Positions 4,519 to 21,807 of a stretch of 37,166 bases of DNA are shown here, one piece after another; the stretch's first letter is position 1, and each line of letters starts with the position of its first letter. The translations under genes and the position numbers were made by a program. The notes beneath the pieces were generated by a model that saw only the letters and a program-made list of their open reading frames with translations, did not search any database and was not told the origin of the DNA. The DNA is from Stramenopiles sp. TOSAG23-2. Its lineage: Eukaryota. Location of the stretch: positions 1 to 37,166 of the forward strand of contig LT649330.1 of the NCBI GenBank assembly GCA_900128395.1. The letters run 5' to 3'.

Positions 4519-6975
4519 TTAGGAACCACCACCACCTCTTGAATTTTGCAGTAACCGCCTTCTACTCACATGTGAATTCCCCACTGTATATTGCGTTCCC
4601 GTCACCACCACGTCTTTCGAATAATGTTTGTGGCGTTGGTCTTTTAATTTTTTTAACTTCTTTTCCCCGCACAAATCTTTGCATTCTTTGTAGCCTTTAA
4701 TATGTTTACAGCAATTTGAATCGTCAACATACATTTTCACTTCAACTTTCGCACCAATTAAATATTTCCTATCTTCACAGAACGGCAACTCACTTTGTAA
4801 ATACCCATTTTTATCTTGTGTATTCAAATTCACCACCGCAACCCATTCTTTCTCTTTTCCATGCACATCCATCGCAACCTGCTGAATGGAAATATCATCC
4901 GCAGTGAACAATGGCGCAGGACAGGAAGTATCTGTTACTTGATACCGCAATTGCTCGGACAAACGAAATATATTTTTATCACTATAAGCAATATCGTGTT
5001 TCAAATAATGTACCGCCACATTTTTTATATTCGTATCACTTAAATCTAAATGGTTGTAGCCACTACAAAACATCGTTTTTTTCCGCTTCAGCTTCGCAGA
5101 CGTCCATTTGGAACCACCATTGCATGTTGCTTCCTCTGATTTTGGTTTCATTTGCATCACTTGTTGCATATTATTTTTACCTATGCGTTTGACAGCTGAA
5201 CGTTTACGTAACGATTTCTCCATGGTTTCTAAAAACGATGGGGCCTGGATTTTCATTGGTTTGATGTACAAACTTTTTATCAAGTTGTAAAACTTTCTCA
5301 TTGCATGTTTATAAGGAACAAACAATTCACATAATTTATTTTCTGGGTTTCCTGGAACATCCACAATGCATGGGCCGCATAATGAAACTTCATCAAAAAA
5401 AGAATCGACTAATTTCTTTGCATGTTTTGTTTTACTTTTGCCAAGGGATTTAAGTAAATCTTTCATACCTTCGTGTAAATACCCGTCCTTTTTAATTGCA
5501 TCAGTCACTTCAACATATAAATTATGACGACTATAATCACCACCTTGACTCAATGCAAATGGTATAATATCTTCACGTTTTATAGTGCTACCTTTTGGTG
5601 GATCACATGCTTCTAATGTTGTATCACGTCTTTCTTTACAACATATATTTGGCCAAAATGATTTAGCTTCTTTAGGAATAGATTGTATTTGAAATAAATT
5701 ATCTAAATCAGATGTAAAAGAACAAAATGATTTTAATAATTCATCACGATTTGTATCAATACATGTTGTATCTTCTATTTTTTCAATTTCATTTGATATT
5801 TCAATGGCAGGGAAAACGATAGTACCTTTTGAACGTTGTTCTATGCATGATGATTTCTCATTTTTATCGTCTTGTTCTTTACGTGCTTGCATGATTTTGT
5901 CATGTTGTAAACGTGTTTGTTCTTTTTGCCATAAACGTGAATTTTTGATGGATAAATCGTTTGTTTTTTCTTTTTGTGCAACTAATTCTTTTTTAAATTT
6001 TGCTAGTTCTTTTTCAATTTCTGGATTGTAACATTTTGTACGTTGTTTATCTGTTATGAGTGGTGCATCGCATTTTTTGCATTCTGCTTTCGTACCGGCG
6101 CCACCTGCGGAATATGTATTTCTTGGACATGGCAAACATAGTTCTTTAATTTTGCATATACATTTCCTACCATTACTACATTTTTCTGTTGATTTTGTGT
6201 TGTAATTCCACCGATAGTTATTATAAAAACTATAATAAAAACATCCAGGTGGAGCATTCGACCAACTCACTCGGCCTCCATATCCTCCATTTTTATCAAT
6301 ATTACTATTATATTCAGCTGCTACCTCACATTCTTCTTCTGTTGTTATTTTAGATATACATGTACCAGATGCACATATAGGTACTGTATCAAGTTGAGTA
6401 TTTCTCCTATACTTGGTACCAGCTTTACAATAAAGTGTATTTTTATCTACAGCACATACATCTACTGAATCAAATATATTTGCACCTTTTGCTGTATATG
6501 GTGTATCTTTTGGACAAGGTATACACATTGGATTGTTACCACCTTCACTATATGTATTGATTGGGCATTTGATACATGTTTTTGTTTTGCATATACATTT
6601 AAATTCATTACTACATTGTCTTGTTGATTTTGTGTTGATATTCCACCAATAATATTCATTATCATTACCTATTTGAATACATCCAGGTGGATTACCCGAC
6701 GAACTCCATCGGCCTCCAAATCCTCTATTTTTATCAATATTATTCTTCCTATTATATTCAGCTGCTATTTTACATTCTGCTTCTGTTGTTATTTTAGATA
6801 CACCACTACATTGTGATGCTAAACCAGATGTACGAATATCTGTTCCTATCATACCATAACCAACTTTACAAGTTTGATCTTCACTACAAACGACTAATAC
6901 CATCATATACTGCGAGATTAACAATAACATAACCATATTGATTAGGTTCATTTTTATACATAAACTTACTTTCAT
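4519..6975 (-). CDS. Secreted cysteine-rich protein, 818 aa: two PPGC/WN modules each followed by a GCC2/GCC3-like CxxCPxNTYS unit, a coiled coil and an unknown C-terminal region
   Basis: Hydrophobic N-terminus. Duplicated module SKITTExECxxAAEYN..GGR..PPGC..WNxNTKST..CSN..KCICK; CIKCPINTYSEGG and CLPCPRNTYSAGG; ends RRRLLQNSRGGGGS. Confidence 0.85.
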   Translation of the reverse strand: MKVSLCIKMNLINMVMLLLISQYMMVLVVCSEDQTCKVGYGMIGTDIRTSGLASQCSGVSKITTEAECKIAAEYNRKNNIDKNRGFGGRWSSSGNPPGCIQIGNDNEYYWWNINTKSTRQCSNEFKCICKTKTCIKCPINTYSEGGNNPMCIPCPKDTPYTAKGANIFDSVDVCAVDKNTLYCKAGTKYRRNTQLDTVPICASGTCISKITTEEECEVAAEYNSNIDKNGGYGGRVSWSNAPPGCFYYSFYNNYRWNYNTKSTEKCSNGRKCICKIKELCLPCPRNTYSAGGAGTKAECKKCDAPLITDKQRTKCYNPEIEKELAKFKKELVAQKEKTNDLSIKNSRLWQKEQTRLQHDKIMQARKEQDDKNEKSSCIEQRSKGTIVFPAIEISNEIEKIEDTTCIDTNRDELLKSFCSFTSDLDNLFQIQSIPKEAKSFWPNICCKERRDTTLEACDPPKGSTIKREDIIPFALSQGGDYSRHNLYVEVTDAIKKDGYLHEGMKDLLKSLGKSKTKHAKKLVDSFFDEVSLCGPCIVDVPGNPENKLCELFVPYKHAMRKFYNLIKSLYIKPMKIQAPSFLETMEKSLRKRSAVKRIGKNNMQQVMQMKPKSEEATCNGGSKWTSAKLKRKKTMFCSGYNHLDLSDTNIKNVAVHYLKHDIAYSDKNIFRLSEQLRYQVTDTSCPAPLFTADDISIQQVAMDVHGKEKEWVAVVNLNTQDKNGYLQSELPFCEDRKYLIGAKVEVKMYVDDSNCCKHIKGYKECKDLCGEKKLKKLKDQRHKHYSKDVVVTGTQYTVGNSHVSRRRLLQNSRGGGGS

Positions 6976-7559: not shown

Positions 7560-9716
7560 ATGATGAATAAAACAAGAAAAGGTAACACGAATCAAAAACA
7601 AAATGTTGAGAAGAATAAGAAGCCGATAACAAAAGAAAAAATCCAACAAGAAAATGATAATAATGATAAAAAATCAACAATAAATAATCCCACCATCAAT
7701 CCAATGGCAATCGAAAATCCAAACTTAAATGAAGAGTCATTACATAAAATAAATCCTACGCAAAGATCACATGCACTATCAACAAATACGAAAAATATAG
7801 CACAAAGCATATTGTATAATTTGTCCTTTAGAAAACACGTACGTTTAAGTGGATCCATCAGTTTATTCATGATATTAATAATTGCCACAACACATTTTGT
7901 AATTTTTTTCGTATATGCAAATGTAAGAAACAGCAGTAGCTTCTACAAGATATCCCGTCCTTTCGTATGGGTATTTCTAACATTTTCGATCGTTTATGCA
8001 TTGCGTCTTGTTCATATACTCGTTGTGTGGAAAAATAATGCAACAACATTTGTTAAAACCAAATATGAAATTGAAGATGAAAATGAAAATAATAATAATC
8101 AACAAACTGTATCCACCATATCGAAAATAAAATCAAAATACAATAATATGACAAAATTTTATGATGACAATTTTGATATTAATGGCAAATATTATTTGCA
8201 TTTAATGTATTTTAGTGAATTCTCTGAAAGTGGGATTCAATTGAACAACTTGATTCAACTTTATTCATGCATGTTACCAATAGGATGGAATATTACATTC
8301 GCCATGTTATTACTAATCGAATCATCACATCGTGCCAAATTTATGTTTTATAAACTTTGGCGAGGGAAAACCACTATTAGCTTCAATGAGCGTAATTTTC
8401 AAGTAATATTAGACATTGGTATTGATTTGTTTTTTCTAATCATGCCATTAATTATTCTATGGTTTGGTTATAGAATTCCCATTTCAATTGGTGAAATTTT
8501 ACAAATTGTTTTCATTCCTTCAATATCGTTATTGTCAAAGTTACCGACTGTTATTGAACAAATTATTATCAACAATGTAAATGAAGAAATTGCATCTGGG
8601 CAAAAACAAGTGTCCGTAAATATGAAAAGGAAGCGTAAATCGTTGTTTGGGTTATCCGTAAATGAAGAGGTAGTTAAGATCCAAAATAAATATTTTCCGC
8701 GATATATGAAGTTGGTAGTGTTTTCTATGAGCTTCATGTATTCGTTAGCACTGATAATTATCATAGTTGGGCAATTGATAAATTTATCATCATTAGATAC
8801 ATGCGACAATATGTTTGATAATACGGACTTATGGCAAAAAGGCTGTATAATCAAAATACCATATTGTAAACGATCATTTATACCAAAGTGTAATTGTGTA
8901 TCATTACACATTGAAAACGATTACAGCTTAAAACAACTTCCGTTGAAAATTACAACAGAAATGGATGGAATGAGAAAAATATACATCAAGAATGGAAATT
9001 TAACAATGCTTTCAAAGCAAATGGAAAATTTAAAAGAAATTGTCGATTTTGAAATATCATTTAACCAATTGCAAGAATTTAATGTGGATGTGCTTCAGTG
9101 GCCTCGTTTAACCCGATTGGTGTTGGAATTCAATAATATTACTAAATGTAATGAACATGTATGGCACCACCCCGAATTAGCAATTTTACGAATGAGTAGT
9201 AATATAGGCCTAGGAATGCCACAAGATGTTAGTAAAATCATACTGCCAAATTTACTTTATTTGCATATGGGTAATAATAGTGTTCAAATTTCAAACGAAC
9301 TGAGCTCCAATCAATTTCCAGCGATAGTATTCTTGTATTTAGATGGAAACATCATGGAAATACTCCCTAACAAAATTGGTAGTTTCAAAGAAACAATAGA
9401 CTCTTTTGGCGTTGCACGATGCGGATTGAAATCATTAAATGGTTTAGAGAGTTTCAAAAGTTTGCATTACTTAGATGCTAGAAATAATAGCATATCTTCC
9501 ATCTCGGGCAATATGAAAAATATGATGAAAAATAAAAAGCATTTCGAGTCCTATTTTTCCGGTAATCCTTTTTGCTACGAAAAGGAGAATAGTGATTTAA
9601 ATTGTGCTAGGTTATGTACCGATTATTGTTGGTCAAAAACGGGTTTTAACAATGGGATATGCGATACAACATGTGATTCGAAGGAGTGTAATTACGATGG
9701 TGGAGATTGTGCGTAG
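7560..9716 (+). CDS. Multi-pass (~7 TM) membrane protein with C-terminal leucine-rich repeats and an LNR (Lin12/Notch)-like module, 718 aa
   Basis: About seven hydrophobic segments in residues ~95-408. LRR consensus (LTRLVLEFNNIT, LLYLHMGNNSV, LHYLDARNNSIS), cap YFSGNPFC, terminal NNGICDTTCDSKECNYDGGDC. Confidence 0.85.
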   Translation: MMNKTRKGNTNQKQNVEKNKKPITKEKIQQENDNNDKKSTINNPTINPMAIENPNLNEESLHKINPTQRSHALSTNTKNIAQSILYNLSFRKHVRLSGSISLFMILIIATTHFVIFFVYANVRNSSSFYKISRPFVWVFLTFSIVYALRLVHILVVWKNNATTFVKTKYEIEDENENNNNQQTVSTISKIKSKYNNMTKFYDDNFDINGKYYLHLMYFSEFSESGIQLNNLIQLYSCMLPIGWNITFAMLLLIESSHRAKFMFYKLWRGKTTISFNERNFQVILDIGIDLFFLIMPLIILWFGYRIPISIGEILQIVFIPSISLLSKLPTVIEQIIINNVNEEIASGQKQVSVNMKRKRKSLFGLSVNEEVVKIQNKYFPRYMKLVVFSMSFMYSLALIIIIVGQLINLSSLDTCDNMFDNTDLWQKGCIIKIPYCKRSFIPKCNCVSLHIENDYSLKQLPLKITTEMDGMRKIYIKNGNLTMLSKQMENLKEIVDFEISFNQLQEFNVDVLQWPRLTRLVLEFNNITKCNEHVWHHPELAILRMSSNIGLGMPQDVSKIILPNLLYLHMGNNSVQISNELSSNQFPAIVFLYLDGNIMEILPNKIGSFKETIDSFGVARCGLKSLNGLESFKSLHYLDARNNSISSISGNMKNMMKNKKHFESYFSGNPFCYEKENSDLNCARLCTDYCWSKTGFNNGICDTTCDSKECNYDGGDCA

Positions 9717-14685: not shown

Positions 14686-15600
14686 TCACGCCACACGACC
14701 AATCCAAAGCCTCCAAAAATCTAATAAAATTGTAACAAGCATGCAACTACCTAATGAATCCCATACAACATGTTCTATTGTCCATGCACCTTTTATTGAC
14801 TTAACCTTTCTGTTACTACTTTTAACTCCTTCATCAACTTGTAAAAACTTTGGAAAGCTAACAATGAAATAGATCATGTAAACAACGGAACCAACTAATA
14901 ATGCACGGTCCCTATTTTGAAATTCCCAATAATCAAATCCTTCAATTGTTTTTGTTTCCATAAATGCAGTTGTATATGCTAAAAATCCAATAAATAACAT
15001 GTTTAATCCTATTTTTCCTTTTGAATTACATGATGAATAATACATTGTTCGCCTCATTCTTCGTATGCATACATTTGTAAGACTATGGTAAAAACAAAAA
15101 TATGCATGTGTTGCCATAAACATTGCTATTGGTACATCATTTATCCTATGTGCATCAAACGTATATTTTGCACCTAATAAATTGTAAAAATGATGTGTCC
15201 AATAAAAATTACCAACATATGACAATATCCAAATCCATACATTAGCTTTGATGTAATAACGTTCAAAAAACGGTTTATCGCCTTCCATTCCATAAAAAAA
15301 TGGAATTAAAATGTAAATCAAAGCCATTGGTGTACAAACATATAAATATTCCCAACGTTTAAATTCATGATACATACCAGTTGATACAATAATTGCAAAA
15401 TATAATATCCAACAAGAGGCGAAAGATAAAAATAATATTTCCGTTTCCGTTTTACTTTGATTTGTACCAAACCATAATTGTAAATTATATTGTTTTTGTA
15501 CTTTTATTTTATTTGCAAATAAAGTATTGATGCAGTAATTTCCAACAGCAAAACTAATACTTATCAAAGCAATAATTAGAATTGGTAATGTCGATAACAT
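14686..15600 (-). CDS. CPI1: Cycloeucalenol cycloisomerase (cyclopropyl sterol isomerase), 304 aa
   Basis: Family motifs KANVWIWILSYVGNFYWTHHFYNLLGAKYTF, NDVPIAMFMATHAYFCFYH, AYTTAFMET, VGSVVYMIYFIVSFP, DSLGSCMLVTILLDFWRL. The track's first 37 aa come from a 111-bp duplication (15510-15620/15621-15731); the 3' end is also duplicated (14551-14653/14654-14756). Confidence 0.93.
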   Translation of the reverse strand: MLSTLPILIIALISISFAVGNYCINTLFANKIKVQKQYNLQLWFGTNQSKTETEILFLSFASCWILYFAIIVSTGMYHEFKRWEYLYVCTPMALIYILIPFFYGMEGDKPFFERYYIKANVWIWILSYVGNFYWTHHFYNLLGAKYTFDAHRINDVPIAMFMATHAYFCFYHSLTNVCIRRMRRTMYYSSCNSKGKIGLNMLFIGFLAYTTAFMETKTIEGFDYWEFQNRDRALLVGSVVYMIYFIVSFPKFLQVDEGVKSSNRKVKSIKGAWTIEHVVWDSLGSCMLVTILLDFWRLWIGRVA

Positions 15601-15905
15601 GTTGTTTGTTTTTTTTTTTCTATTTGCAAATAAAGTATTGATGCAGTAATTTCCAACAGCAAAACTAATACTTATCAAAGCAATAATTAGAATTGGTAAT
15701 GTCGATAACATGTTGTTTGTTTTTTTTTTTCAATAAAAATCAAACTAATTATTTTAACCGTAAATTTTAATAATAACAATAATAATAATAATAATCAAGT
15801 GTCTGTAGCTCGCGTTAGGGGTATTTATGCATACATATTATACATCAACCTTCTTCTTTCTATGTTCCTATAATATATATTCCTATACACAGACAATAAA
15901 TACAT

Positions 15906-16077
15906 ATTTAAAATTTTAAATATAAAAAAATTTGAATTATTGTTGAAATTTATTTATTATGTTTTTTTTTTTTTTTTTTTTTTGATGATCTTCAACAGCA
16001 CAACACTATAATAAAAAAACGACTTAAAAAAAAACAGCTATTTAAAATTTTAAAAATAAAAAAATTTGAATTTTTTT

Positions 16078-16119
<42 letters not shown>

Positions 16120-16175
16120 ATGATCTTCAACAGCACAACACTATAATAAAAAAACGACTTAAAAAAAAACAGCTA
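15906..16175. repeat. ~135-bp tandem duplication around a poly-T tract, second copy degraded
   Basis: Both copies end tgatgatcttcaacagcacaacactataat...aaacagcta. The second copy has bases next to the poly-T replaced by T or A. Confidence 0.9.
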
Positions 16176-16572
16176 GCAGGAGAATAGCAAAAGTAAATTT
16201 TCTGTTTGATCAAATATCCGCATAATTTTTTAAACTTTTTTTGCGTAAGATTTCTGTAGCACTTACACAGCAGGTAATTTTATAGGTTTTATAGAGTTTT
16301 ATACAGTTTTATACATTTTTAATCACTTAAATTCCAGTAAAATTTATTAAAATAGTTCCTTTCCTCATATATAACTACATTGCATTGGGCATGTTTAGGT
16401 GGCCTCCACAGGTTACTTTCCTGTAAGACCACTTTCCACCTTTTCGATTACACGTCCCACTTTTGCCAACCACACATGCCAATGATCTACAACTATCAGA
16501 ATTATCCCCAACGTATATTTGGGCATGTGCATTCTCCGCCCCATCCACCAACACGAGGTGCTTTTTCTCGCA

Positions 16573-19500
16573 CTATATTCTTCTTGGACCTCTCCAACGA
16601 CGTCTTGGGCGGGGCCTTGGGCGAGGTCTTGGGCGTGGCCTTGGGCGAGGTCTTGGGCGAGGTCTTGGGCGGGGCCTTGGGCGGGACCTTCGTCTATTTA
16701 TTACCTTTCCAACTTTTTTAAAACGTTTTTTTATTGCCTTTCCAACTTTTTTAAAACGTTTTTTTATTGCCTTTCCAACTTTTTTAAAACGTTTTTTTAT
16801 TGCCTTTCCAACTTTTCTAAAACGTTTTTTTCTTGCCTTTTTTGCTTTTTTAAAACGTTTTTTTCTTGCCTTAGCATATCTTTTTCTTGCCGGCTTTTTT
16901 GGTGCAATGTAATAGGCTGGCTTAGGACTGGCTTTACACCAAGGTTTGATCGTGTCTTTGGTAGAAGAATCTATGCAACGTGTTAGATCAAAGGGTTCTC
17001 CAGTTTTAGTAACAATTGTATTTCCATTTTCACATTTGATAAAAGCGGTTTCCCACACTGGACCTGGTGCCCATATCCAATTTTTGTAACCGTTTACATC
17101 AAATTGATTCTTACCCGTCGTAGACGCCTTGAACATATGCCAACAACCATTTTTTTGCTGTCCACATGCCACACACTTTCGATTTTCATTACATTTATTT
17201 GTTACTTTATTTATATCATCGTGGCAACCACCTTCACCAAGATATTCTAATTTAACCTTCGGAGCATTTTCGTTCCAATTTGTTATATATTTAAAACTGC
17301 TAGGGTTATTAACTACTGCCTCTCGTACTACCTCTGGGCGTGGCCTTGGGCGGGACCTTCGTCTATTTATTACCTTTCCAACTTTTCTAAAACGTTTTTT
17401 TATTGCCTTTCCAACTTTTCTAAAACGTTTTTTTATTGCCTTTCCAACTTTTCTAAAACGTTTTTTTATTGCCTTTCCAACTTTTCTAAAACGTTTTTTT
17501 ATTGCCTTTCCAACTTTTCTAAAACGTTTTTTTATTGCCTTTCCAACTTTTCTAAAACGTTTTTTTATTGCCTTTCCAACTTTTCTAAAACGTTTTTTTC
17601 TTGCCTTTTTTGCTTTTTTTCTTGCCTTTTTTGCTTTTTTTAATGCTTTTTTTAAACGTTTTTTTCTCCCCCTCCTTCTTCCCCACTGAACTTTTATCCT
17701 CTCATTCCCCTGTCTCCGAGATGCCAAAAGTGATCTTCGCCCTCTCGGAACTAACTCTGATTTACTTTTCTTCAATAAAAACCACCAACAACCGTTACTT
17801 TGCTTTGCAATTGCTTCACATTCAGGATTTGAACTGCATTTAGCTTTTGCTATGTTAATATCATTTGAGCAAACACCCTTGGCAGCAATAGGTTCGAAGT
17901 TTATCCTTGTGGGATCCTTTACCACGTCATCCCACCATAAAGCACTCCCAACAGCAGTTAGACTCGACCCGCTGGTTTGTAACATATTAATGCCCGCGAT
18001 AAAACTTTCCGTAATCTCTATTGCTCCGGATGTTGTCTTGCATTTTGCAGCCGCAAATGTACTGCATCTTTGTATTTTGTCTGGAACAAATTTGTTCCAA
18101 AATTTTAATAATTCATCATTATTCAAAGATTGTAAAATTGCTATGTTTTTAAAAGCTTTCTTACTCAATTCTACAATGATTGTATTACGAATAGAATCTT
18201 TATTCATTCTTGAAACTTCAGCGCTTGTCCTAATTGCATTTTTTACCAATAAGTCTTCTAACGATAGTTTTACTTGTTCATATTTTTGACCGTCGGAGTT
18301 ACGACCAACACGCACCTCGCTAATATAAGAGCCCCAATCATTTTCATCTGCTTCTTCTTCTCCCCCTCTTTCGTTATTTATACTTTTGAAAGAAAACCCC
18401 GTCGTTCTTTTTTCCTCCGCCTGTTCTAATTTATCTAACTCGTCTTTGGCCCTGTTCAATTCAACTTCTGCTTCAGAACGGCGAGCTACCGCTTCTTCGC
18501 GACTATGTTCATCAATCGCTCCTTCAACTTCGTCATCAAATTTATCAACTTGTTCCTGTAAGCGTTCAATTTCGTCCTCCATTTTAACAAGCTTCCGATT
18601 ATATTTTTCACCTTCGACAATAGCTTGTTTCTTCTCTCGTTTTAATTTTGCCCTTTCTTTAACTTGTCGTTTAATCTCCAGCGCAATTTCAACACCTGCT
18701 TTTGCCATGTCGATTATTTGTCCAACTCCAGGTATAAATGTAGCTGCTTCTAAAGCTTTGCTAGCCAGATCTTTCAAACCTTTTTTTATACATTGAGCTT
18801 TCGATTTTTTTTTTCCAGTTTTAGGATCTTTCTCTTTTAAACATTTTAACAGCGGTCCAAGTCCAGGCATAGCGTCTGCCCACGCTGCCATTGCTTTGTT
18901 CATACACTTCCCAACACTGCCTTTACACGTTAGTAAAGTTGTAAGGAATGCATACCCTGGCAACATTTTAAGAAAGCTATGTGTAAATTTCCCAATGGCT
19001 TTTAATCCCTTTACAACCCATTTTCCAAATTTTTTTAATCCCTTTCCAATTGCCTTAAAACCTTTTTTAATCGCTCTGCCCATCTTCTTTATACCTTTCT
19101 TCATTGCATTTCCAGCTTTTTTCAAACCTTTTTTCATACTTCTTCCAGCTTTTTTCAAACCTTTTTTCATCTTTTTGCGCGCCTTCTTACCAAAAAGAAG
19201 GCGCCTTGATCGCTTCGGTACTTCCTCGTCTTCCTCTCCTTCATCACCTCCTCGTTTCGAAAATAAAGCCCTTGATCCATAACCCTTCCTCTGTTCATAT
19301 CCACGAGATGACAAAAGTGATCTTCTGCCCATGTTGGATGTTGCGTTAAGCATTTCAGTATTGTTATAAATTCCGTATCTCTGGCGATATTCTATAGTCC
19401 TTACGCGTATCAACTCCTTCAGTGCTACTTTATATATTGGGTAAAACTGTTCGTTTTGCATAATTTCTACGCCTAATTTGACACTCGTGTTCTTTTCGTC

Positions 19501-21807: not shown

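Follow-up and report, generated by a model that had tools for sequence, protein, structure and literature searches.

A predicted secreted mosaic protein of a marine stramenopile whose cationic cassettes are swapped behind a conserved R-x-L linker

The window analysed here is the whole of contig LT649330.1 (37,166 nucleotides (nt); GenBank assembly GCA_900128395.1, Stramenopiles sp. TOSAG23-2), and its reverse strand carries, at 16573..21807, an intron-free gene for a protein of 1744 amino acids (aa) in which four Lys/Arg-rich blocks alternate with Cys-rich modules. The strongest new feature of this gene is that cationic cassettes have been exchanged for other modules behind a linker that is itself conserved: near-identical versions of the gene hold different modules at the same sites, which makes them a clean natural experiment on the evolution of mosaic proteins. 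As regards function, the explanation that we prefer, tentatively and without holding it to be probable, is that the product is a secreted mosaic cut at R-x-L into a few large pieces, each of which would pair a polycationic helix that binds surfaces or membranes with lectin-like modules, for the capture or killing of prey. Marine bacteria are eaten mainly by small heterotrophic flagellates; to our knowledge, the molecular basis on which these flagellates hold and kill their prey is almost unknown, since most of them are uncultured. The parts of the gene that matter first are the following:

16573..21807, minus strand: coding sequence, 1744 codons plus stop, intron-free (translation of the open reading frame (ORF) and RNA contigs)
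21163..21456, minus strand: block 1, an amphipathic helix followed by a Lys run, aa 118-215 (hydrophobic-moment z 4.1 and 3.6, period 3.7)
19195..19332, minus strand: linker with three R-x-L-[LF] sites (RRSLL at aa 828, RALF at 846, RRLL at 868), DEGEEDEE, and KR at 865-866
18985..19197, minus strand: block 2, six imperfect 11-residue units of the KKGLKKAGxxM type, aa 871-941 (z 8.3, period 3.65)
17716..17745, minus strand: second RRSLL linker, PRGRRSLLAS, aa 1355-1364 (RRSLL at aa 1357), identical in the relative P0320
17335..17682, minus strand: block 3, a K/R lead-in, seven KKRFRKVGK[A/V]I units, NRRRS and (RP)3, aa 1376-1491
16576..16899, minus strand: block 4, four KKRF[R/K]KVGK[A/V]I units, NRRRS, (RP)13 and an RRRWRGPRRI end, aa 1637-1744
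16378..16621, minus strand: relic of an older C-terminal Cys domain, now behind the stop codon in the 3' untranslated region (UTR), found by tblastn of P0320, with a frame change near 16517

When considered by their periodicity, the four cationic stretches (aa 118-215, 871-941, 1376-1481 and 1637-1704) behave alike. The original prediction had described them as Lys/Arg-rich blocks with an amphipathic rhythm, and this is borne out by a mean hydrophobic moment at 100 degrees that lies 3.5-8.3 standard deviations above that of residue shuffles, the observed value being reached by 0-2 of 500 shuffles for each of six block definitions. Its repeat counts are exact as well: KKRFRKVGK[A/V]I occurs seven times (6+1), KKRF[R/K]KVGK[A/V]I four times (1+2+1), and the RP runs have 3 and 13 members. 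At the DNA level, these two arrays are 33-nt tandem repeats, one with 7.4 copies at 99% and the other with 5.3 at 94%, and block 2 also has a 33-nt period. The hydrophobicity spectrum peaks at 3.65-3.75 in all four blocks, and likewise in the Lys blocks of the relatives P0156 and P0163, so that the periodicity matches that of the hendecad (11/3, or 3.67) and not that of the heptad (3.5). Plotted as a helical wheel with 11/3 residues per turn, KKRFRKVGKAI has its F, V, I and G in the arc of 229-327 degrees, and the rest is taken up by K/R. Blocks 2, 3 and 4 consist of 11-residue units without an acidic residue; net charge amounts to 31% of residues for the first part of block 1, to 41% for block 2 and to 57-58% (K+R) for blocks 3 and 4, where the mean hydrophobicity is very low (-0.67 to -0.70), and no block has more than one Ser. 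Thus, the periodicity supports a reading of the cationic blocks as amphipathic helices. An AF2 model of aa 800-1075 built from five sequences (mean pLDDT 47.2, pTM 0.22) was too poor for a fold search; at this low confidence it leaves aa 800-873 unstructured, draws block 2 as one helix of 66 residues and places five helices after it.

The swap becomes visible in comparison with P0320, an 811-aa metagenome fragment that is 92.4% identical to the product of 18777-17710 and 95.9% identical to that of 17334-16891, and from which both block 3 and block 4 are absent. PRGRRSLLASR and EVVREAVVNNPSSFKY flank the site of block 3 in both proteins; between them stand block 3 and (RP)3 in the window protein, whereas P0320 has about 220 residues with three copies of a GDRF-QIG-WR...GKTAQIY...HPGPRND repeat. 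This repeat, of about 64 residues and with the pattern GDRF[VI]QIGxWRxxDxDGxH...GKTAQIY..DGTxHPGPRND, spans aa ~357-575 of P0320; it has no match in Pfam, and a search of P0320 against PDB sequences returned nothing meaningful. At the site of block 4, the window protein continues with block 4, (RP)13 and the stop codon, whereas P0320 has a short linker with RLLNSRR followed by a Cys-rich end domain. Traces of that end domain are still present behind the stop codon of the window gene, in the 3' UTR, where tblastn aligns P0320 at 97.8% over 46 aa in the frame of the ORF and at 63% over 41 aa in another frame; an RNA contig of sequencing run X15 carries 11 extra bases at 16514-16519, the same spot as the frame break of the relic. 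Because the DNA of block 4 (16666-16872) is 95% identical to that of block 3 (17335-17541), block 4 is, judged by this identity, a recent copy of block 3, inserted in the last linker and thereby truncating an older domain. The helix of block 1 can be followed residue for residue into P0156, where by eye it carries +5 over 39 residues as against +15 here; since this helix is less cationic in P0156, and since P0320 lacks blocks 3 and 4, most of the extreme charge is lineage-specific and recent. The RRSLL motif is not specific to cationic peptides: different modules stand behind the same RRSLL linker in P0320, with flanks that are 92-96% identical, so the motif marks module borders generally.

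RRSLL (aa 828 and 1357), RRLL (aa 868) and KR (aa 865-866) do precede the two internal blocks, as first noticed, and block 1 is without an upstream R-x-L motif. The longer pattern R-x-L-[LF]-x-x-[RK] is found at aa 829, 846, 868/869 and 1358; counting every open frame of the window that reaches 100 aa, it has six matches, five of them within this protein, as against 1.04 ± 0.96 after shuffling (maximum 5 in 300 shuffles). Five of the six R.L sites of the protein lie directly upstream of blocks 2 and 3. In every relative seen, the motif precedes the Lys block (SRQLLSGR in P0156, SRALFSKR and SRRLLFGK in P0163, TRILFKRR and GRSLLVSR in P0003), and the linker at aa 846-870, with 23 of 25 residues identical in P0163, is the best-conserved stretch of the comparison, the corresponding values being 42/71 for block 2, 51/100 for the module that follows and 9/36 for the region before the linker. 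No conserved site was found at the C-terminal end of any block in the relatives compared; instead, block 2 runs directly into a conserved Cys/hydrophobic helical module. KR and RR sites number 37 in the protein, and 17 of these lie inside blocks.

Motifs of this style are not confined to the one gene. A neighbour at 4519-6975 (minus strand) encodes a secreted protein of 818 aa with a leader, a match to Ephrin_rec_like and the string PSFLETMEK, and its end, SRRRLLQNSRGGGGS / ...HVSRRRLLQNSRGGGGS, is similar in style to the family linkers RRSLLSSRG and SRQLLSGRHGGGG. Because this neighbouring secreted protein ends in the same kind of motif, an R-x-L-type motif may be in general use among the secreted proteins of the organism. 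Precedents are known from other stramenopiles. In oomycetes, RXLR is reported to be cut after its L before the protein is secreted, and only in disordered stretches that lie shortly after the signal peptide (10.1101/2024.04.16.589758). Section 7 of PMC4557024 proposes that RXL, including the RRIL and RRNL that end the repeats of Sil1p, serves endopeptidases generally as a cutting site in the precursors of diatoms. By analogy with these cases, we infer that the window protein is cut at R-x-L.

The relatives of the protein were collected with a scan of 1.84 billion representative proteins (query aa 255-1360), which gave 182 matches at E ≤0.001, of which 150 were listed, and four at ≤1e-30. The true relatives can be divided in three groups: near-identical fragments (P0004 at 93%, P0007 at 98%, and P0320), a closer lineage at 64-67% (P0003 and P0008/P0163), and a distant lineage at 37-40% (P0156, full-length with 1530 aa, and P0002, P0005, P0012 and P0162), whose gene has a G+C content of about 45-50%. 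P0156 shares with the window protein, in a different order, the leader and N-terminal domain, the helix of block 1, a Lys block of KKGAKKAAKKV units, the Cys/hydrophobic FIPGVGQIID module and the PAN module. Block 2 is kept as Lys hendecads in P0156, P0163 and P0003. The arrangement of a motif before a Lys block, for which the original prediction proposed to search, is seen in these three relatives; blocks 3 and 4 are absent from P0320. A scan of metagenome contigs yielded one locus, L001, whose contig (1-2853) looks chimeric: bases 3 to ~1000 hold a eukaryotic family member at 45-50% G+C, and the remainder, at 57-62% G+C, has bacterial-looking ORFs on the opposite strand.

Beyond the family proper, a set of small proteins shows a recognizable likeness. 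Among 19 matches chosen for checking because their alignment fell in the Lys block of the query, five combine Lys 11-mers with an IPxxG turn (P0030, a hypothetical protein of Gymnopilus junonius, P0044, P0068, P0088 and P0124), and P0321 does so too. Their layout, a leader, a basic site, KKGFQKAGxxI-type 11-mers and then K/FIP[GV][VI]G in a Gly/Ala-rich helix, recalls the window protein; they differ in being without Cys, and the likeness is limited to the repeats and 28 columns. In a profile comparison (hhalign) the repeats matched at 95% over 70 columns, BLASTP between the small proteins and the window protein was not significant, and no Pfam family reached its cut-off in them. The link to fungal and other small secreted proteins is therefore offered as a lead and not as a finding, homology not being established.

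That the gene is real and transcribed follows from public sequencing data. Counting those runs in which at least half of the gene's sampled words are present, 20 contain it, and 18 of them are RNA libraries, from marine or seawater metatranscriptomes of nine studies and in several cases selected for poly-A. The frame is open from 16573 to 21840, its first ATG, at 21807, giving 1744 aa with zero internal stops, and 16286-21845 is covered by contigs of four runs from four studies, most pieces at ≥99% identity. Unbroken RNA contigs include 19855-21795 and 18157-19200 (run X2), and a further contig of run X2 (16286-16631, zero differences) crosses the stop codon into the 3' UTR. Natural populations therefore do carry the gene as modelled, free of introns and with its RP tail and stop codon. 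Eight sequence variants were seen in the contigs (two synonymous and six conservative replacements), too few for a test of selection; the flanking stretches 15800-16273 and 21962-22900 are without contig cover in the four runs, which is not evidence of silence. Some RNA joints were considered as splicing or as variation in repeat number and set aside: 16684>16802, 17389>17603 and 16713>17596 lie within the tandem arrays and are treated as effects of the assembly graph. The joint 17775>18157 removes 127 codons in frame (381 nt) in three runs, but its shorter side is only 29 letters long, less than the assembly word. The interval of this last joint is also covered without a gap by other contigs from the same three runs, and it too is probably an assembly effect.

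As to the owner of the gene, the long uninterrupted ORFs next to it encode typical eukaryotic proteins according to a Pfam scan, among them an inositol-3-phosphate synthase (468 bits). Of 120 listed relatives of this synthase, 19 rows name an organism, and 17 of these belong to the stramenopiles (oomycetes, diatoms, a labyrinthulid, a xanthophyte and brown algae), with identities of 66-69%, the other two being an insect and Capsaspora; the relatives at 79-100% among the 120 are all environmental sequences. Because the named relatives are mostly stramenopiles, the owner is, on this placement, a marine stramenopile with low G+C and few introns, and without a close named relative. G+C is 32.0% for the window, 36.8% for the ORF and 29.3% at its third codon positions. 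For MAST-4A, an uncultured bacterivore lineage, PMC5269757 gives 33.9% G+C and 0.56 introns per gene. The G+C content of the window and its sparse introns are consistent with these figures, a consistency that does not imply membership of the lineage.

The remaining features of the gene are listed here:

21727..21807, minus strand: signal-peptide-like leader MQRSYRFDCLFVILAILFGTIFTPLLA, aa 1-27 (hydropathy; the homologue P0156 also has a leader)
20608..21045, minus strand: Cys-rich module of the PAN/apple type, aa 255-400 (Pfam PF00024, PAN_1, matching at aa 326-378)
20362..20622, minus strand: acid-rich, Pro-free stretch, aa 396-482 (29 D/E vs 17 K/R)
19549..20022, minus strand: four W/Cys modules, C-x5-W-x-W-x-C-x3-C-x-W-x5-C, aa 596-753 (regular expression)
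18673..18984, minus strand: helical module with four Cys and the hydrophobic turn FIPGVGQIID, aa 942-1045, conserved across relatives
18403..18678, minus strand: second acid-rich stretch, aa 1044-1135 (28 D/E vs 23 K/R; AF2 helix at aa 1028-1074)
18088..18264, minus strand: 'DxRNTxIVEL' domain, aa ~1182-1240, matching repeats in P0046, P0047 and P0053; no Pfam family
17773..17877, minus strand: first GCW mini Cys domain, aa 1311-1345, matching fourfold repeats of P0033 and P0037
16933..17265, minus strand: second mini Cys domain (GCWH) and a further Cys-containing domain, aa 1515-1625, 95.9% identical to P0320
16286..16572, minus strand: 3' UTR as far as the RNA contigs extend, containing AATAAA

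The leader was called by a hydropathy heuristic that does not predict a cleavage site. Windows of 19 aa with a mean Kyte-Doolittle value above 1.6 start only at aa 4-14, preceded by R3 and R6, and a hydropathy scan found the segment at aa 4-32 to be the sole hydrophobic one, with no further membrane span. The composition of the protein (17.0% K, 7.3% R) gives a net charge of +224, with 52 Cys and six N-x-S/T sites. Entry into the secretory pathway is supported by the leaders of both full-length members, by Cys modules of extracellular type and by the PAN domain, in keeping with the giant secreted protein of the original prediction. PAN_1 passes its Pfam cut-off of 21.4 bits when the module at aa 255-400 is scanned alone (23.0 bits, E 7e-5); the whole protein scores only 18.4 bits, and the cut-off is clearly passed, with 30.8 bits, by the homologue P0002, to which the module is 37% identical over 211 aa (E 2e-40). 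The domain makes up about 3% of the window protein, and the remaining architecture is without a described counterpart among PAN/apple proteins (PF00024). The W/Cys modules (matches at aa 596, 643, 688 and 733) are a 135-nt tandem repeat in the DNA and are conserved in P0003; an assignment as thrombospondin-type repeats was rejected, as no Pfam family matches. Together with the PAN module, these four bear out the presence of Cys-rich modules between the blocks. An AF2 model of aa 585-830 from two sequences (mean pLDDT 33.2) was unusable. The FIPGVGQIID module aligns with P0002 at 40% identity (E 5e-28) and agrees with P0156, P0162 and P0163 at 48-51 of 100 positions; it has no match in Pfam or among PDB sequences. 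With aa 255-1360 as the query, PDB sequences gave nothing at E ≤0.1, and in the ESM Atlas both the whole protein and aa 866-1065 scored 0.76 at best, below the useful level.

Several of these modules recur in other proteins. The GCWH domain (C-x8-10-C-x5-C-x8-GCWH), to which no Pfam family corresponds, forms fourfold repeats in the marine metagenome proteins P0033 and P0037, one cluster of which has 24 members, and the GCWH part of aa 1515-1625 matches both. An origin of the PAN and GCWH look-alikes in giant viruses was considered and dropped, as the collection of viral contigs held no relatives of the block 2-module alignment or of P0037. The 'DxRNTxIVEL' domain is a repeat some 55 residues long, built around (D/E)D-x-RNT-[LIM]-IVEL and present once in the window protein and three or four times in P0046, P0047 and P0053, and one protein of that set is fused to a papain-type C1 peptidase. 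P0010, P0011, P0014 and many further hits of the scan, of about 260-500 aa, share the same 'FWG...CW.R' PAN domain, with an N-terminal helical region before it and a C-terminal membrane span after it. By eye, strings of the form [ST/A]-F/L-[LI]-[ED]-[IVT] (TSFLDIG, NAFIEIK, GFLEIVG, MSLLETD, ASLLEEQ, TSFLEVV, NAFLETG) stand at module borders of the family (aa 258 and 763 of the window protein, P0156 and P0163). The resemblance of FLD, FIE and LLE in these strings to an apicomplexan S-hydrophobic-x-E maturation motif was dropped because the organism is a stramenopile.

How these parts might work together can be outlined as follows. The precursor would be cut after R-x-L in its two disordered linkers (aa 828-870 and 1357) within the secretory pathway, yielding a few large pieces (approximately aa 28-830, 871-1360 and 1361-1744) rather than many small peptides. 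Each piece would combine lectin-like Cys modules (PAN/apple, W/Cys or GCWH) with a long, polycationic and amphipathic 3-11 helix that has a narrow apolar stripe of F, V and I and a wide K/R face. Such helices may fold on polyanionic surfaces, such as bacterial envelopes or membranes, and stick to them by avidity. A unit that inserts into membranes is best sought in block 2 together with the hydrophobic helical module around FIPGVG. The pieces might then serve to hold or permeabilise bacterial prey, or to help digest it. The ingredients are known separately, namely RXL-delimited precursors of stramenopiles, 3-11 amphipathic helices and lectin-like modules, and they appear combined here in a protein with no described relative. 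A model for the helices comes from 11-mer repeats of apolipoproteins, alpha-synuclein and perilipins, which, according to PMC5889406, form 3-11 helices that fold when they meet lipid and whose binding improves with length. The window blocks share with apolipoproteins, alpha-synuclein and perilipin 4 the exact 11-residue period, the very long repetitive helices and, it is to be expected, folding upon contact with a surface; in contrast, those proteins are cytosolic or found in plasma and have polar faces of mixed charge, whereas the window protein is predicted to be secreted and its blocks 2-4 combine the lack of acidic residues with a far higher charge. A search of block 2 against PDB sequences found alpha-synuclein nearest, at a non-significant E of 2.9-8.9, and the window protein does not belong to any 11-mer profile, ApoLp-III matches occurring below cut-off and in look-alike proteins only.

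Several observations weigh against this outline. R.L as such is not enriched in the protein (6 sites vs 7.0 expected), and only the clustering and conservation of the sites stand out. The motifs sit 800-1350 residues into the protein, unlike the position described for oomycetes, and read RxL[LF] instead of RxLR: R.LR is absent from the window protein, and its RxL[LF] sites are those of aa 829-869 and 1358. Oomycete RXLR effectors are secreted stramenopile proteins too, cut after R-x-L before secretion according to the study already cited (10.1101/2024.04.16.589758), but they carry RxLR close behind the signal peptide, often followed by EER, whereas the motifs of the window protein are placed deep, in two linkers. 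The fold of the candidate membrane-inserting module is left unsupported by an AF2 pLDDT of 47, and its 28-column match to the small proteins around FIPGVG (66% probability, E 5.8e-5) was obtained with windows picked on the motif and is partly circular. P0156 is without the W/Cys modules and the whole C-terminal half, and together with the lack of blocks 3 and 4 in P0320 this makes most of the charge dispensable for the role of the family. Finally, the presumed bacterivory of the organism is argued only from the match in G+C and intron density to one uncultured bacterivore lineage.

An extension of this outline, which is more speculative and which we think unlikely, has the cationic cassettes being gained, copied and swapped between near-identical gene versions in an arms race with prey, the precursor acting as a weapon of an abundant, uncultured, bacterivorous stramenopile. 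Its pieces, cut at RxL, would be targeted by their lectin-like modules and would permeabilise bacterial envelopes with supercharged 3-11 helices and a hydrophobic hairpin. If this were true, an antimicrobial effector system would be described for the first time in the main bacterial grazers of the ocean, and a membrane-active module common to fungal small secreted proteins (Lys hendecads and an IPxxG hairpin) would have its founding example. Even the more modest proposition that the helices bind or breach bacterial envelopes would turn the gene into a marker by which grazing could be followed and handled in metatranscriptomes, and would provide very long cationic helices of a new kind. In the literature searched, which did not extend to supplementary files, no paper linked MAST-4 or heterotrophic flagellates to antimicrobial peptides. 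PMC10268365 has the word 'antimicrobial' once, in the title of a cited phagocyte review, and neither 'cationic' nor 'lysozyme' nor 'saposin'.

Other explanations of the same protein have to be set against the one preferred. It might stay large and act as an extracellular matrix or adhesive that binds polyanions, with the helices as electrostatic cross-links and no killing involved, whether in a cell coat, in mucilage, in a glue for prey capture or as the partner of a polyanion (polyphosphate or a sulfated glycan) condensed in granules. We regard this as rather doubtful, although much of the composition speaks for it: a net charge of +224 interspersed with acid-rich stretches, Cys-rich binding modules and a PAN domain typical of matrix and adhesion proteins, tandem arrays that vary between close relatives as in surface proteins, and the 57-58% K+R and the hydrophobicity of -0.67 to -0.70 of blocks 3 and 4, which suit polyanion binding better than membrane lysis. 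What such a cross-link has no need of is the strict amphipathic 3-4-4 pattern, with its stripe of F, V and I, that is kept in every unit and in distant homologues; moreover, the conserved RxL[LF] linkers suggest processing, and no polyanion partner or granule is known for the organism. The original prediction, in contrast, saw a polyprotein from which many cationic antimicrobial peptides are released, which would call for dibasic cuts inside the arrays too. Cecropin, magainin and dermaseptin are the linear, cationic and amphipathic types of antimicrobial peptide with which the protein invites comparison, and secretion, the leader, the acidic run with KR and RRLL just before block 2, the K/G/F-rich amphipathic cationic helices, the conserved R-x-L-[LF] linker, the many dibasic sites (17 of 37 within blocks) and the resemblance of exact tandem 11-residue units to multi-copy peptide precursors are all in keeping with it; the (RP)13 tail, which has no evident release site, may also be reminiscent of proline-arginine-rich antimicrobial peptides. 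However, cutting between 11-residue units would give products of 8-11 residues, which is shorter than lytic helices; there is no spacer or propiece between units; and no conserved site ends the blocks, of which block 2 is fused to a conserved module. A mature peptide would be bounded by processing sites on both sides, and here motifs are found only upstream of blocks 2 and 3. Mature antimicrobial peptides are often hypervariable, whereas block 2 is as conserved as the module adjoining it (59% vs 51%); helical antimicrobial or lytic peptides generally have K+R far below 57-58% and are more hydrophobic than blocks 3 and 4, which in P0320 are in any case replaced by other modules. The window blocks differ further from such peptides in their length of 35-106 residues, their net positive charge of 31-58% and their want of homology, no antimicrobial peptide family having been matched in Pfam and none significantly among PDB sequences. 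The observation behind the original prediction is thus real and its antimicrobial polyprotein partly supported, in its secretion, helices and linker, while the battery of small peptides fails at the block ends, and we consider release of such peptides improbable.

Two further explanations start from composition. A silaffin-like protein, of which polycationic pieces cut at RXL would template silica or another mineral, is suggested by the stramenopile nature of the organism and by resemblances to the precursors of diatom silaffins, cingulins and silacidins, which share with the window protein a signal peptide, repetitive Lys clusters, R-R-x-L motifs at unit borders (PMC4557024) and a stramenopile origin. 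A screen for silaffin-like proteins, as set out in PMC5501833, asks for an ER signal peptide, repeated KXXK (X being S or G), an RXL site and a pentalysine cluster of 12-14 residues. Three of these features are present in the window protein, namely the leader, six R.L sites and 29 stretches with at least five Lys in 14 residues, a count that allowed consecutive Lys where the screen asks for non-consecutive ones. It has no K[SG][SG]K and, where silaffin-like proteins are rich in hydroxy-amino acids (Ser) that become phosphorylated, at most 13 Ser in any 100 residues and next to none in the blocks; diatom silaffins are flexible Ser/Lys peptides, in contrast to amphipathic helices joined to large folded modules, there is no sequence similarity to the diatom precursors, and no sign of mineral formation by the organism. 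We therefore hold such a role to be very improbable. Least credible of all is a nucleic-acid or chromatin binder of the histone H1 or protamine type that has been misread as secreted: the Lys/Ala and Arg/Pro composition of the blocks would fit it, but the leader, the sole hydrophobic segment of the window protein, is conserved in the distant homologue P0156, and the 52 Cys lie in extracellular-type modules that include a PAN domain.

Elsewhere in the window, matches of other ORFs comprise a lipase maturation factor, a cytochrome-b5 desaturase and LicD, and ORFs with ankyrin, leucine-rich repeat plus LNR, ephrin-receptor-like and fn3 pieces are also present. Scans of the window with Rfam and for tRNAs gave no match. 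The spacer downstream of the gene contains a run of 36 T (16083-16118). Beyond it, the ORF at 14686-15711 (minus strand), without a Pfam family, begins with 30 residues (MLSTLPILIIALISISFAVGNYCINTLFAN) that are tandemly repeated, and its remainder may resemble a plant cycloeucalenol cycloisomerase. Finally, the ORF at 7560-9716 (plus strand) encodes 718 aa in which membrane spans are combined with leucine-rich repeats and, at the C-terminus, an LNR domain of the Notch type.

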